Assembly: GCA_951406725.2 (NCBI GenBank)
Contig: OX597815.1
Span: 188,728,001-188,792,000 of the forward strand
DNA length: 64,000 nt
Origin: Octopus vulgaris
Taxonomy: Eukaryota
Direction of reading: 5' to 3'
In this document: piece by piece, positions 10,940 through 60,378 of the stretch
How positions within the stretch are numbered: the first letter of the stretch is position 1
How the letters are laid out: every line of letters begins with the position of its first letter
Notes under the pieces: model-generated
Told to the model about the DNA's origin: nothing
Databases searched by the model: none
What the model saw: the letters and a program-made list of their open reading frames with translations, nothing else
Translations under genes and position numbers: made by a program

Positions 10940-11150
10940 ATCAAAATGTGACCGCTTGTGTACCATTGGCGATTTTTTTCCTCTGTCTTCCCTTCTCTGG
11001 ATCTTTCCATCTCCTATGTTTCCGATGAAGAGCTCCGCTCGAAACGTTAAACCCTCCTTCTTTCCTTCTTTCCTGAGCGTCCAATAATACTATATTTGTT
11101 CCACGTCCTCGCGTTGTTGTGTATTTTTGTGCTTTCATGTTTGGATTAAC
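10940..11150 (+). mobile_element. ORF-less Penelope-like terminal fragment next to (TA)n
   Basis: Homologous to 39836-40050 (-) and 51960-52108 (+); carries a minimal hammerhead; pyrimidine-rich end abutting (TA)n. Penelope assignment is inferred. Confidence 0.6.
11018..11052 (+). ncRNA. Minimal type I hammerhead-like motif (core CCGAUGA)
   Basis: gttt CCGATGA a gagc tcc gctc GAAA C GT T aaac. Confidence 0.65.
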
Positions 11151-11214
11151 TATATATATATATATATATATATATATATATATATATATATATATATATA
11201 TATATATGTATATG

Positions 11215-11540
11215 TCACCTTACTGGCACTTGTGCTGGTGGCATGTGAAAATACATTCGAGCGGGGTTGTTGCCAGTGCCGCTGGACTGGCTCCAGTGCA
11301 GGTGGCACATAAAAAGCACCATTTGAGCATGGCTTTTGCCAGTACCACCTGACTGGCCCTTGTGCTGATGGCACATAAAAGCACCCACTACACTCTCGGA
11401 GTGGTTGGCATTAGGAAGGGCATCCAGCTGTAGAAACTCTGCCAGATCAGATTGGAGCCTTGTGCAGCCATCTGGTTCGCCAGACCTCAGTCAAATCGTC
11501 CAACCCATGCTAGCATGGAAAGTGGATGTTAAACGATTAT
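11215..11540 (+). mobile_element. RTE-type LINE 3' tail fragment
   Basis: Same tail family. Confidence 0.8.
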
Positions 11541-11904
11541 GTATATATATATATATATATAAATATTAAAATTACTAAGTCTCTCTAAAGGAGATTATGG
11601 CAGTGTTACTAGATATTAATAGTTATCGCCATACTAATATGGCAGTCTATAAATATAAGACTAAAGCTGTCGCTGATTAGCTCCAAGAGGCCATCGCCTC
11701 TAGCTAGCTATATGATACACGAACCTGCATCCATTACAACCTTAGAACAGGGGTTATATATATATATATACGTTTATGAATTTGTTTCGTTAGGAAAAAT
11801 ATCACCATCCCTAAATATAACAATATATATATATATATATATATATATATATAGTGTATAGAACGGTTTGTACATTGATTATTGTGAGTAGTCCACTCTC
11901 ATGG

Positions 11905-12017
11905 AGCTTTAGATGTTTTCGCTCAATAAACACACACAACACCCAGTCTGGGAATCGAAACCGTGATCCTCTAACCATGAGTCCGCTGCCCTAACCACTG
12001 GGCCATTGTGCCTCCAC
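11905..12017 (-). mobile_element. SINE family C head fragment
   Basis: Minus strand gtggaggcacaatggcccagtggttagggcagcggac.. Confidence 0.8.
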
Positions 12018-12282
12018 AAAGAAGACATGTAGTTCCATATTAAACACAGTTGAAAATCTTTAATGAAAGATATTCCAATTATGACAATCTTTCAAATTGT
12101 AGATCAGGAATTATATTCTTCTGTGTAGCCTTTATTTATAAGTGTGCTTTGAGGGAGTTCGTGTTGCTGTTTTCAGCAAACAGAATATCACAAAGTTAAA
12201 ATGTGTTTGTTTAAGAAATCCAGATATGTCTAATGGTAAAAGTGTTTAGTGTTAAGAAGAGTGTTTGCAAAAAATTACAATA

Positions 12283-12737
12283 GGCATAGGAGTGGCTGTG
12301 TGGTAAGTAACTTGCTTATCAACCACATGGTTCCGGGTTCAGTCCCACTGTGTGGCACCTTGGGCAAATGTCTTCTACTAAAGCTTCGGGCCACCCAAAG
12401 CCGTGTGAGTGGATTTGGTAGACAGAAACTGAAAGAAGCCCATCGTATATGTGTGTGTGTGTGTATATATATATATATATATATATATATATATGTATAT
12501 ATGTATGTGTGTGTGTATATGTTTGTGTGTCTGTGTTTGCCACCCCCCCAACATCGCTTGACAACCGATGCTGGTATGTTTAGGTCCCCGTCACTTAGTG
12601 GTTCAGCAAAAGAGACGGATAGAATAAGTACTAGGCTTACAAAGAATAAGTCGTGGGGGGGGGGGTCGATTTGCTCGACTAAAAAGGCAGTGCTCCAGCA
12701 TGGCCACAGTCAAATGACTGAAACAAGTAAAAGAGTA
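12283..12737 (+). mobile_element. SINE family A
   Basis: Full head-microsatellite-tail match. Confidence 0.9.
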
Positions 12738-13506
12738 ATATATTTGTTCTATTACTTATGTAAACATAGATTTCAGAAAAATCTTAGTTATTCAAAAGAA
12801 AAATATAGAACTGAATAAAAACAACAAATCTATTACACTTCGAATTACTTTTTAATTTAGAATGAGTTTCAGCCTCTAGCCATTATTTAATGCACTTGAT
12901 TTCGTATATATTAGCTAAATATTCTCATTTTAATGACAGTAAATATATATATATATGTTACTACAAATTATGCAGCCATTTATAGATAGTTGAAATAGGT
13001 CACTTGAGAGTGTATTAGGCAGAAGAGCAAAAGATCTCTGATCCAACCTTGGGTTTTATCATGTGAATGACATTCTTTTTTTGCCCTTGAAATCATTACA
13101 AATTGATATTTCTACCATTTAACTTACTTAGGGAGGAGGGAGGGAGAGTGGAGGAGGAGGAGGATAGGCAACCAGGTTTCACTCACATATATACATATCA
13201 GAGCATAATCATCATTATAATACATACATATATATATATATATATATATAATACATACATATATATATATATATATATATATATATATATATACATACAT
13301 ATATATATATATATATATATATATATATATATATATATATATGGTGATGTAAATATGCCATTTGAATATGGCTAACCCCTAAGGGTGGATGCTACTGTAG
13401 TTTTTAGCCCCAGGAAGACATCTCCTCCAGCTGGCTATAGACACACTTTCTGTGCCCTATCAGTATTTGCAAAGGAAGCCATCCTTCCCGTCTTCAACTT
13501 ATGATA

Positions 13507-13551
13507 CACACGGACCCGAGTTTCAAGGTATTGACCTATCATCAGCGTGTG
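13507..13551 (-). ncRNA. Type I hammerhead ribozyme motif
   Basis: Mirror copy of 13658-13702. Confidence 0.85.
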
Positions 13552-13657
13552 ACAATCACAGTTGTCGATAGGAAGGAGGTTCTCTTTACAAATACATACT
13601 GGAAAATGTATATGTATTTGTAAAGAGAACCTCCTTCCTATCGACAACTGTGATTGT

Positions 13658-57789: not shown

Positions 57790-58218
57790 GAGAGAGAGAG
57801 AGAGAGAGAGAGACAAATAGACAGAGACAGAGACATGGAAACAGAGAGAGAGAGAAAGAGAGAGAGAGAGAGAGAGCCAGAGACAGATAGAGAGACAGAC
57901 AGACAGACAAACAGACAAACACAGAGATAGATAGGTAGAGAGAGAGAGAGAGAGAGAGAGAGAGAGAGAGAGAGAGAGAGAGAGACAGAGAGAGAGAGAG
58001 AGAGACAGACAGACAGACAAAAACATGGAGAGACAGACAGAAAGACGGGCAGAGACAGAGAGAGTGAAAGGGAGAGAGAGAGAGAAAAAGAGAGAGAAAG
58101 AGAGACAGAGACAGACAGACAGAAAGACAGGCAGATAGAGAGAGAAAAGGTGAGAGAGAAGGAGACGGAGAGAGAGGAGAGATAGAGGGAGGAGAGAGAG
58201 AGAGAGAGAGAGAGAGAA
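57790..58218. repeat. (AG)n/(AGAC)n microsatellite
   Basis: Directly visible. Confidence 0.95.
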
Positions 58219-58290
58219 GGCTGCACCAGCACTTGCCTGGTTCTCATTTACAGCAGATTAGTCTGGACTAAAGCAAAATGCCTGGCTTAA

Positions 58291-58502
58291 CTCATTAGCA
58301 TTTAGATTGCTCAGTCAAATGTATTACTTCTTAATTCATATTGTTTTTAATTAATCATGCATTATCTTGCAGCTTCAAGATTTCGATGATGTTTACTTTT
58401 CGAATGACATTATGGGGTAGGTGTGAGAGACCAGATCTGGCCAGTTTGAACAGAAAATAGAGAACATTTCAACTGGATATAGCCAGTTTAAATGCTAAGG
58501 GG
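58291..58502. mobile_element. piggyBac-like MITE
   Basis: TTAA on both sides; TIRs ctcattagcattta / taaatgctaagggg; related fragment starts at 60447. Confidence 0.7.
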
Positions 58503-58610
58503 TTAAAGGCACAATGGACAGACCGGTCAGGGAATTAAACCTACTGCCTTATGACTGTGACCTGAACACCCATTGTGAAGGCTATATGCCTCCACAATGT
58601 AATCACAAAA

Positions 58611-58820
58611 GGTGGCGCGCTGGCAGAATCATTAGCACACCGGGCAAAATGCTTAGTGATATTTCGTCTGCTGTTACATTCTGAGTTCAAATTCCATTGA
58701 GGTCGACTTTGCCTTTCATCCTTTTGGGGTTGATTAAATAAGTACCAGTTATGCACTAGGGTCCATGTAATCGACTTAACCCCTTTGTCTGTCCTTGTTT
58801 GTCCCCCTCTATGTCCCCTT
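58611..58820 (+). mobile_element. SINE family B
   Basis: Family match. Confidence 0.85.
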
Positions 58821-58853
58821 GATCTCTCCCTCCTCTTGTTCTCCCCCGATTCC

Positions 58854-58953
58854 NNNNNNNNNNNNNNNNNNNNNNNNNNNNNNNNNNNNNNNNNNNNNNN
58901 NNNNNNNNNNNNNNNNNNNNNNNNNNNNNNNNNNNNNNNNNNNNNNNNNNNNN
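58854..58953. other. Assembly gap (100 N)
   Basis: Run of N. Confidence 1.
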
Positions 58954-60019
58954 ATGTACATGTAGGACTTCTGCATTGTTTCTGTCTACCAATTTACTGA
59001 CAAAGCCGGATATTGAAATTTTTCATTTATTTCCATCTGTAGATGTTGATTGTTCTTTCATGTTATTATTAAACTTGAATGCTAATACTTCCAAACCTAA
59101 TTTCAAAGTGATAGTTCATTAAGTAACTAATTATCGTTATAGTGATTCAAAGTGGACAAAGACAGTTCCGTACTTAAATGCTTAACAATGATGAAATATC
59201 GGATAAATTAGCTTTGAAATTGTGAAAAACAATCTAAAGCACTCACACACACACACACACACACACGTAAAGACACACTCACACACACATAAAGACAAAC
59301 ACACACACACATAAAGACAAACACACACACACGTAAAGACAAACACACACACATAAAGACAAACATACACATACATCAAAACACATATATACATAATATA
59401 TATATAATTTAATATGAATTGTTAGGATTTAAAATATGAGGAAATTTTTGATTAATTTGATTAATTGAATAATTTGGCATTTTGCATATGTTATTAAATT
59501 GATTGCTTCTAGATGATAAATTTAATACAGTAACATCTGTCAAACCGATTCCTTTAGGAAAAGAAAATGTATTGTTGAGTTCTGAAGTTATAGTTTAGCA
59601 ACAGAAAGGAAATAAAAGTGATTTATTAAAACAAAAACTACTTTGATAGTTTTTCTTGAAGATGGAACAAAGAAGAAAAGACAATTCCAAGGGAAAAATT
59701 GAACCAAATATTAACAACAAAGATATAGTAAAACTTAAACTTGGTATAAGATGCAACATTCAAATGTGTAATTAATGGCATTTGAAATTTCTTAATTAGT
59801 TTCATATAGTTGATCAAAATAATTTTTTGAGTGAAAGACTCGTTAAGAAGCCTGTTTGTGACTACATGGTTTCAGATTTTGTACTATTGTGTAATGCACT
59901 AGACAAAGAAACTCTACAGGAGTATTCTGCATACTGAATCCACATATTACAGGGTCTCACATATGGAAGGTATTTCAACCATGTTTTGAGGTCTGCTACC
60001 ACAACAGCTCCTTTATAGG

Positions 60020-60378
60020 ATCCAGTTAACTCAAGACATCATCAGGAAGAACCACGTTCGGTTTCGGCCCTTAATCCTCTACCGTTTTGACGTGGTGCTC
60101 CCCCCACTTTTGGAGGTGTCTTCAGCTCTGGTGTTGGGTGCGTGTCTTCTTTCTTCTTCTTTCTTCTGTTCCCTGGCCTCTTCGATGTAGCGCCAATGAG
60201 TGTCAGCAGGCGACTGACTGCCTTGTCAAATTTTTTCCCTTTAAATACCTGCTGCTAGGCTCCCGCAGGCAGCCCCAGCAAGTTGTCACGTGACACTGTC
60301 TCAACTTTAATGGTGGTAATACTGGACATTCCATCCCTGTTCTCTGCACTCTTCGATTAGTTTTTCGTACCTCAGTGG
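60020..60378 (-). mobile_element. 3' remnant of an RLE-type non-LTR retrotransposon (HERO/NeSL-like)
   Basis: Minus strand 60375-60300 reads LRYEKLIEECREQGWNVQYYH then, after a frameshift, IKVE; resembles the Y..L...C...GW.....EVG end of RLE domains. Confidence 0.6.
60033..60084 (-). ncRNA. Candidate non-circularly permuted hammerhead (family P3)
   Basis: Minus strand cgg TA gagga tta agggc c GAAA ccg aacgtggt tcttc CTGATGA t gtctt. Confidence 0.75.

Follow-up and report, generated by a model that had tools for sequence, protein, structure and literature searches.

A predicted four-strand hammerhead with a split core in Penelope/retrozyme-like repeats and in the 3' UTR of a LINE

Non-circularly permuted hammerheads were known earlier from metatranscriptome contigs and from two isolated DNA cases (PMC10085705). 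Among them, in vitro cleavage has been observed for the type SGC topology, which likewise has a short linker and an additional helix; its examples are all metatranscriptomic, with none from the genome of a known organism, and a break between A9 and G10.1 was assumed to be impossible (Eckert 2023, PMC10085705). It should be added that PLE hammerheads normally tolerate a single additional nucleotide at the A9-G10.1 step (PMC4209133).

In the window, i.e. the whole 64-kb stretch of DNA that was analysed, descriptor and nhmmer scans placed 10 confirmed hammerhead-like loci, fewer than the at least 13 of the original prediction. Five of them are of type I (11018, 13658, its inverted twin 13551, 39970 and 51987), against 0-1 in each of 10 shuffles in the descriptor scan, and five are copies of families A, B and C recognised with nhmmer, most of which are decayed. 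No hammerhead was present among the 150 of 382 Rfam matches listed. The type I loci are as follows:

11018..11052, + strand: ordinary minimal type I hammerhead of the PLE type, U4C core variant
39940-39974, - strand: sister copy of the minimal type I hammerhead at 11018
13507..13702: ordinary type I hammerhead in inverted duplication, two copies (13658-13702, + strand; 13507-13551, - strand)
51983..52018, + strand: degenerate minimal type I hammerhead with one core mismatch

At 18496 (+), 34496 (-), 45886 (+) and 60033 (-), the NUH element comes first, followed by GAAA and then by CUGANGA, and stems I and III are present. This S-G-C (a-c-b) order rules out the circular permutation types I, II and III (CGS, GSC and SCG). 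The original prediction had named this non-circularly permuted order at these four positions, together with a short linker between stems I and II and retroelement ends as carriers, and had mentioned natural precedents in other taxa. All of this holds: the order is that of the published type SGC (Eckert 2023, PMC10085705), the short linker is present in these hammerhead-like loci, and the carriers are Penelope/retrozyme-like repeats in families A and B and a LINE 3' UTR in family C. The copies in the window comprise:

18336..18802, + strand: family A copy, ORF-less, PLE/retrozyme-like, 5'-truncated (extent by BLAST to sister loci)
18475..18487, + strand: family A, strand X (stem II 5' strand, starting at G10.1, with one decay change) and P4 5' strand
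18496..18508, + strand: family A, block S (stem III strand, GUC, stem I 5' strand), predicted cut after 18501
18511..18523, + strand: family A, block G (stem II 3' strand, GAAA at 18516-18519, stem III strand)
18532..18552, + strand: family A, P4 3' strand, stem I 3' strand and CUGAUGA core (18546-18552)
45870..45941, + strand: family B split-core hammerhead; X 45870-45875, P4 45876-45882, S 45886-45897, G 45902-45914, P4' 45921-45927, stem I and core 45929-45941
34505..34577, - strand: family B copy, layout as in 45870..45941, with damaged X (first base changed)
17365..17401, - strand: family B copy (17371) whose 5' end lies just before GAAA; without X, P4 5' strand and S
60022..60131, - strand: split-core hammerhead of family C, within the LINE 3' UTR; outer helix P0 60117-60131 with 60022-60038, decayed X 60096-60101, P4 60089-60095, GUA site 60080-60084, G 60059-60071, P4' 60052-60058, stem I and core 60039-60050
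59956..60372, - strand: 3' end of an RT+RLE non-LTR retrotransposon, HERO-like, with ORF remnant at 60313-60372

The course of stem II departs from the original prediction, which had drawn one of its strands from the nucleotides after CUGANGA and had left strand b intact. In families A, B and C, and in D, a fourth family located outside the window, the strand before GAAA pairs instead with an upstream strand, X, which supplies the 5' strand of stem II, always begins with G opposite C11.1 and continues into a fourth helix, P4. No conservation was seen for a 3' splice site immediately ahead of X. The helix sequences of the four families differ, and one layout, X-P4-S-G-P4'-core, is common to them. 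Because stem II consists of upstream X and the strand before GAAA, A9 and G10.1 are not covalent neighbours in the predicted fold, and the layout so predicted is that of type SGC (Eckert 2023) reopened, or circularly permuted, at A9/G10.1.

The hammerhead core is present as CUGANGA, GAAA and NUH with A15.1-U16.1, and with upstream X it is surrounded by stems I, II and III with G10.1-C11.1, in family C in part of the copies. The G10.1-C11.1 pair is GC in 65/70 cases in family A and GC or GU in 42/44 in family B. With the core left unconstrained in the search pattern, CUGANGA was counted by eye in 90 of 100 listed copies, and by the same count no subfamily has a fixed core change apart from N7. 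The S-G-C order, the short stem I-II linker and the extra helix of type SGC are all found as well; the fourth helix had been overlooked in the original prediction.

An uninterrupted block C, with the stem II strand at most 1-2 nt past CUGANGA, occurs in a distant LINE relative with an unsplit SGC (L624) and is missing from B, C and D, while family A offers a weak alternative. The three-block descriptor recovered family A, family B solely with a 5-nt insert and family C hardly at all, and therefore a four-block model was adopted. That the ribozymes are of canonical type SGC as drawn earlier, with stem II after CUGANGA and X either incidental or a switch, is conceivable for family A only and, in our judgement, quite improbable. 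In this family a weak second partner for stem II is retained downstream, giving 3-4 contiguous pairs (63/70 distinct rows); one locus (L219) is able to pair both ways, and the related L624 has exactly the unsplit form. Nevertheless, the downstream pairing in A averages 1.8 Watson-Crick pairs, is worth 0 to +2.6 kcal/mol in A1/A2 against -4.6 for X, and involves a strand that lies in a local hairpin. In B it requires the 5-nt insert, pairs 66% of cells and has its closing pair broken in 27/43, and in C and D there is no complement to the strand before GAAA after CUGANGA.

Covariation supports all four helices of the predicted fold. In family A, 91.2% of 1554 cells are paired in the four-helix model, with two-sided changes in 17/23 pairs; 38-47% are paired when the strands are slid, and 0/500 shuffles match the real value. 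In stem II, three of five pairs switch jointly from one subfamily to another (AU>GC, GC>CG and GC>AU). The figures for family B are 92.3% paired, 11/24 pairs changed on both sides and 12-43% when slid, with stem II supported by five UA>CG cells and two single cells. An unbiased scan of column pairs returned model pairs as 10 of the top 22 in A (4,984 column pairs) and as 3 of the top 22 in B, none of the latter in stem II or P4. On a tree built without the helix columns, 13 double Watson-Crick-to-Watson-Crick changes fall on internal branches, along with nine pair-breaking changes. The covariation signal stems from a small number of splits between subfamilies; in A, the switch in stem II falls on essentially one branch (two double changes counted there).

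These figures also bear on chance complementarity in repeats, or an artefact arising when ordinary type I hammerheads are duplicated, which we regard as highly improbable and largely excluded. It is true that the best partner strand was picked after looking, that short helices arise by chance and that some stem III strands are palindromic. However, X was located by homology and not by complementarity, the slid controls collapse in both A and B, and the layout recurs in four families. Furthermore, stems I and III of at least 4 bp at a fixed spacing of 16-17 nt were found in 37/74 family A copies, consecutively listed and chosen solely by GAAA and core, against 0/240 control loci, i.e. metagenome and viral contig matches to similar patterns, all of them chance matches that served as controls. 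A strict four-helix scan of the window copies passed only that at 18496, and in unselected DNA it gave 2 matches versus 0.35 per shuffle; this enrichment is weak because most copies have decayed.

The 5' ends of copies, counted as junctions against full-length references, cluster just inside the predicted cut in families A and B. In A, 21/74 lie 3-15 nt before GAAA, and the adjoining 45 nt contain 8 (rate ratio 6.5, p 1.4e-6); in B, 10/35 lie between GAAA and the predicted cut, and 1/25 in the next 16 nt. No such cluster is present in family C (1/40 copies). The peak lies 5-8 nt inside the predicted cut, level with the 3' strand of stem II or slightly beyond it, a position that could be due to RT stalling at helix II. 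These ends lend indirect support to RNA-end processing by the predicted ribozymes, and we infer that the RNA cuts itself after NUH.

The peak at stem II rather than at the cut, and the missing pile-up in C, where a cut would part the ORF from the last ~115 nt, also suit a fold that is real and not, or no longer, a nuclease. It would then be a conserved RT handle for template recognition, end-joining or pausing, and the pile-up would reflect stalling at helix II. Moreover, metazoan PLE hammerheads are poor cleavers in vitro (PMC4209133). We consider such a handle unlikely: although helix sequences have been replaced between subfamilies, every catalytic residue and the NUH are retained, N7 alone being free, and a plain protein handle needs no such residue conservation.

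Families A, B and D are ORF-less, Penelope/retrozyme-like repeats, organised as tandem units with one hammerhead each in the manner of retrozymes, though this hammerhead is not of type I. The tandem unit of family A measures ~740-760 nt (tandem copies, locus L010); A and B have direct companions at 669-772 nt in 5/120 loci and inverted companions in 10/120. No coding ORF was recognised in the A, B and D units among the matches listed, nor was an autonomous PLE adjoining A or B found among the tblastn matches listed, which a SINE dominated. The single PLE sampled (L123) has a type I-like motif. Family A sequence occurs in sequencing-run contigs of four organisms. In the 45886 copy of B, the cleavage position (17) is occupied by G, and stem III is 1 nt short. 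Of the three families taken as unrelated in the original prediction, A and B indeed have helices that do not align; however, they are probably related, as common upstream motifs and one A/B chimera (L571) make their unrelatedness doubtful.

The ORF-less state, originally ascribed to all of these ends, applies to A, B and D but not to family C, which is the 3' UTR of an RT+RLE LINE: the 60033 element retains the RLE ORF remnant, and sister copies have an RT ORF. This LINE is HERO-like and may belong to the HERO clade. R2-Hero elements among molluscs have been reported mainly in cephalopods. The RT (PF00078) has relatives with 37-62% identity, including the Tetraodon polyprotein Q7T1J8, and RT, CCHC knuckle and PD..D RLE motifs are visible in the ORF; Pfam gave no match in three ORF pieces. 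HERO relatives were found in genome contigs at 11 loci (7 extending to the C-terminus, 1 with SGC) and not in viral contigs, plasmids or phages; a short motif for fish HERO ends had no match in viral contigs. X pairs over at least 5 bp in 13 of the 27 scorable copies out of 40. Activity is less certain in C, where the predicted fold would be ancestral yet often disabled at X. HDV-like and twister readings of family C were dropped after inspection by eye.

At the level of sequence, the order, the four predicted helices, the intact core, high copy number (thousands of copies in the genome) and partial tandems are evident. The best overall explanation, which we consider likely, is that families A, B, C and D carry a predicted four-strand, split-core, self-cleaving hammerhead whose ends are clamped after the cut. 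The RNA would cut itself after NUH, and the upstream product would remain held to the downstream one via three helices (II, P4 and III; ~15-20 bp). Since the products would stay joined, a unit-length RNA could hold both of its termini close to each other until the ribozyme or RtcB ligates them into a circle. Linear or circular units might then be copied into (TA)n by a PLE-type RT acting in trans, giving rise to partial tandems, inverted 5' pieces and copies starting just inside the cut.

A broader reading, to which we give an even chance, is that this is a seventh natural hammerhead wiring beyond the six block orders regarded as possible, with the core opened at A9/G10.1 and completed by a fourth strand. 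It would be active, would clamp cleaved retroelement RNA ends for efficient circularisation, and would number tens of thousands of copies in the genome of an animal, common to Penelope-type repeats and HERO-type LINE 3' ends, where unsplit SGC also occurs. If so, SGC-type ribozymes would be a widespread retrotransposon part missed by type I descriptors, and PLE and LINE families scored as hammerhead-less by these may need rescanning. Their high copy number in animal retroelements would provide non-circularly permuted hammerheads with a genomic home and many natural variants. The A9/G10.1 break would contradict the stated block assumption (PMC10085705), would give engineered ribozymes a new point of attachment, and it suggests a route by which permutations arise in tandem or circular elements. 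The role of the ribozyme in Penelope-like elements and retrozymes becomes a testable question, because the predicted fold should function without dimerising and keep its ends in place to be ligated.

In the discontinuous Clec2 hammerhead (Martick 2008), the ribozyme strands are reportedly separated in the transcript, the break interrupting the loop of one stem in a type III fold; strand separation is common to both, whereas the break here falls inside a core block. R2 and further non-LTR elements begin with HDV-like ribozymes at their 5' end (PMC6765202). Family C would similarly combine a self-cleaving RNA with an RLE-type LINE, but of a different class and at the opposite end, as a hammerhead-like fold in the 3' UTR. 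Core-insertion hammerheads likewise tolerate an insert at the A9-G10.1 step, of 1-2 nt in the available parts of PMC4209133 and Perreault 2011 (PMC3088659), whereas here the open ends of the chain, or helix P0, exit there. With the type I hammerheads of PLE and non-LTR retrozymes, as presented in PMC4209133, PMC7229834 and bioRxiv 10.64898/2026.07.22.740005, our Penelope/retrozyme-like repeats share a unit several hundred nt long that lacks ORFs, partial tandem copies, 5' pieces in inverted orientation, microsatellites as targets, the G10.1-C11.1 pair and a proposed cut-circularise-reverse-transcribe cycle; in contrast to their weak stem III and dimer dependence, a single unit here supplies a stem III of 4-6 bp, in a predicted pseudoknotted fold. 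The nearest kin is type SGC (HRIMA-1 and variants, PMC10085705), with the same S-G-C order, short stem I-stem II linker and full core, and an extra helix that ties stems I and II on their opposite flanks and in some cases abuts stem III. Unlike in that type, where block C is intact by assumption and examples are metatranscriptomic, block C is here broken at A9/G10.1, the stem II and P4 strands come first, and thousands of copies reside in genomic retroelements, a strand order that, for these hammerhead-like RNAs, appears not to have been described before.

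The strand order a-c-b that the original prediction had proposed was recovered: the NUH block (S), the GAAA block (G) and the CUGANGA core (C) follow one another in this order, together with stems I and III. Both stems occurred at constant spacing in 37 of 74 consecutively listed family A copies (the repeat at 18496) that had been picked by GAAA and core alone, and in none of 240 control matches; the remaining family A copies were mostly 5'-truncated. The point that non-circularly permuted hammerheads had already been reported also held: a-c-b is what Eckert et al. (2023; PMC10085705) describe as type SGC, which cleaves in vitro and has a stem I-II linker of about 3 nt and an extra helix. 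The proposed formation of stem II by the strand after CUGANGA failed. This strand has no such partner in family C (60033); in family B (34496, 45886, 17371) a 5-nt insert is required, with which 66% pair and 27 of 43 show a broken closing pair; in family A the pairs are mostly G-U and the strand is occupied by a local hairpin. The Watson-Crick partner of the strand before GAAA is X, located upstream of S. The 5' strand of a fourth helix, P4, is continuous with X, and its partner lies just before the stem I 3' strand.

The family A alignment comprised 74 sequences (70 distinct) after prior exclusion of 33 truncated or rearranged copies, with X positioned by homology; 91.2% of cells were paired (38-47% in slid controls) and 17 of 23 pairs showed two-sided changes, stem II reading GAAGG/CCUUC in one subfamily group and GAGCA/UGCUC in another. 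For family B (44 sequences, five of 49 candidates being dropped as truncated or rearranged), the values were 92.3% and 11 of 24 pairs. Stem II of family C with intact X, GGCCCC/GGGGCC, fits the layout, and an additional outer helix, P0, begins directly after A9 and is intact in 59/70. It should be added that X of family C (G-run/GGCCCC; window 60096-60110, minus strand; L581-L620) is far more variable than the remaining 3' UTR, that the X/stem II pair is fully compensated in one locus (L609), and that P0 contains a second CUGAAGA. Family D has the same split layout with unrelated helix sequences, and a search for a stem II partner downstream of its core found none.

L016, near 2450-2550, minus strand: family D, also in L633 and L634, from the four-block scan (669 genome candidates)

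Counting any match within a locus as a pass, the four-block scan was passed, per locus set, by 7/30, 35/70 and 6/20 (A), 24/30, 22/40 and 14/40 (B), and 7/30 and 7/30 (C), and by 0/240 control loci, which were shorter than the family loci. In a distant A-like copy (L219, minus strand, near 2100-2200) both X and the downstream strand are able to form stem II; this copy may represent an intermediate or a switch.

Paired cells are not independent events, since a tree built without helix columns placed 13 double and 9 pair-breaking changes along its internal branches and mapped the stem II flip to essentially one branch. The top 22 pairs of an unbiased scan included 10 model pairs in A (good support) and three in B (weak), and a strict scan of unselected DNA gave two matches versus 0.35 per shuffle. 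Summed helix stacking (-32 to -50 kcal/mol) is stronger than the nested minimum free energies (-15 to -23), but it omits loop and pseudoknot costs, and the two are not comparable like-for-like. A new wiring of a known ribozyme in retroelements is well supported as real, and the four-helix fold is very probable. Judged from sequence, families A, B and D probably cleave; for family C catalysis is a tentative prediction, slightly on the doubtful side.

The split layout equals an SGC circularised and then reopened between A9 and G10.1, in block C, which Eckert et al. explicitly assume to be uninterruptible; they report no SGC in genomes of known organisms despite a RefSeq search (PMC10085705). In literature with thin coverage of subscription papers, the name type-SGC appeared in the 2023 paper only, the phrase 'between A9 and G10.1' was absent from texts on hammerhead ribozymes, and the matches listed included neither a genomic SGC, a split core nor a HERO 3' hammerhead. 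For giant squid, the part of PMC6962438 available gives 235 Rfam hammerhead-1 matches only. Family A sequence is present in sequencing runs of four organisms. Seven LINE-related loci in genome contigs extend to the C-terminus, and one of them (31% identity) carries an unsplit canonical SGC.

L624, 1180-1250: type-SGC hammerhead of the unsplit form, including P4; it lies 364 nt beyond the match, within the 3' UTR of a distant RT+RLE element

Its helices (stem III 7 bp, stem I 5+5, stem II 2, P4 8) were matched by 0/2000 shuffles. The contig is filed under a bacterial bin and is probably eukaryotic DNA; it places SGC in DNA, outside metatranscriptomes. This single example suggests that permutation within tandem or circular templates may have turned an unsplit SGC into the split form.

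Of the 13 hammerhead loci first claimed in the window, ten could be placed (five type I, five A/B/C). Inverted pairs of CUGANGA-bearing repeats at 16613/16969 and 20959/21054, probably among the 13, fail hammerhead descriptors and are likely decayed type I motifs. The duplicated type I hammerhead is flanked, within 12662-14537, by long nested inverted repeats of 98% complementarity, an arrangement that is a typical Penelope-like element (PLE) 5' inversion. Elsewhere, a decayed autonomous Penelope-like element (L123:3600-7200) has a type I-like motif, and its 5' end bears an inverted segment; L153 (minus strand, near 3270-3350) has a type I-like motif with a long loop II.

First-look candidates in 2.8 Gb (about 30 large contigs) numbered 2612 for A (18496), 2734 for B (45886) and 1367 for C (60033); exact-pattern matches (controls in brackets) were 3538 (10), 2688 (13), 1189 (17), 2520 (0) and 1032 (0). 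Forty arbitrary 10-kb stretches held four A, four B and one C copies, very roughly tens of thousands genome-wide by extrapolation. The predicted location on ORF-less retroelement ends applies to A and B; family C is the fixed-end 3' UTR of an RT+RLE LINE, presumably of the HERO clade, with partial tandems in 3/30 loci. Its last ~55 nt (window 59956-60010, minus strand) resemble a further type I hammerhead in degenerate form that runs to the 3' terminus of the element. Units of A, B and D are ORF-less and T-rich, with a CT-rich tract, a CACGTGAC-like motif, a GTAAG site, (TA)n at the end, variable 5' ends and, occasionally, direct (669-772 nt) or inverted companions; no autonomous partner was found among the matches listed. 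One chimera (L571) fuses A upstream sequence to the B 3' part just before GAAA, which suggests template switching and machinery that A and B may share.

In family A, 21 of 74 copies have their 5' end 3-15 nt ahead of GAAA and eight have it in the next 45 nt (ratio 6.5, p 1.4e-6), the anchor hiding ends further 3'. With a downstream anchor, the counts of family B ends in consecutive bins were 1, 4, 10, 1 and 0, the maximum lying between GAAA and the predicted cut (overall ratio 3.1, p 0.03); three of these ends represent internal deletions. In agreement, about 28 of 32 (TA)n junctions, judged by eye, join at or inside the predicted cut. No pile-up was seen in family C (1/40 copies). A template starting at the predicted cut explains the A and B end positions; reverse transcriptase stalling at helix II explains them as well, helix II being still paired when the enzyme arrives, given the split topology.

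In the proposed mechanism, read-through RNA would fold the four-strand core and cut after NUH, and the upstream end would remain bound via stems II, P4 and III, so that the cyclic-phosphate and 5'-OH termini of a unit-length RNA would be positioned for ligation; a reverse transcriptase acting in trans may then insert templates, whether linear or circular, into (TA)n. Families A, B and D share PLE hallmarks described in 10.1101/2021.04.23.441226 and fit the retrozyme model given in PMC4209133, PMC7229834 and 10.64898/2026.07.22.740005. Four of their units (L010, L033, L176, L633) carry branch-point/pyrimidine-like tracts ahead of X as well as a donor-like GTAAG site, resembling PLE introns, but AG is not conserved in A. 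The split fold predicts a tighter product complex than that of type I retrozymes, which self-ligate poorly (1-3%), ligation being done by RtcB.
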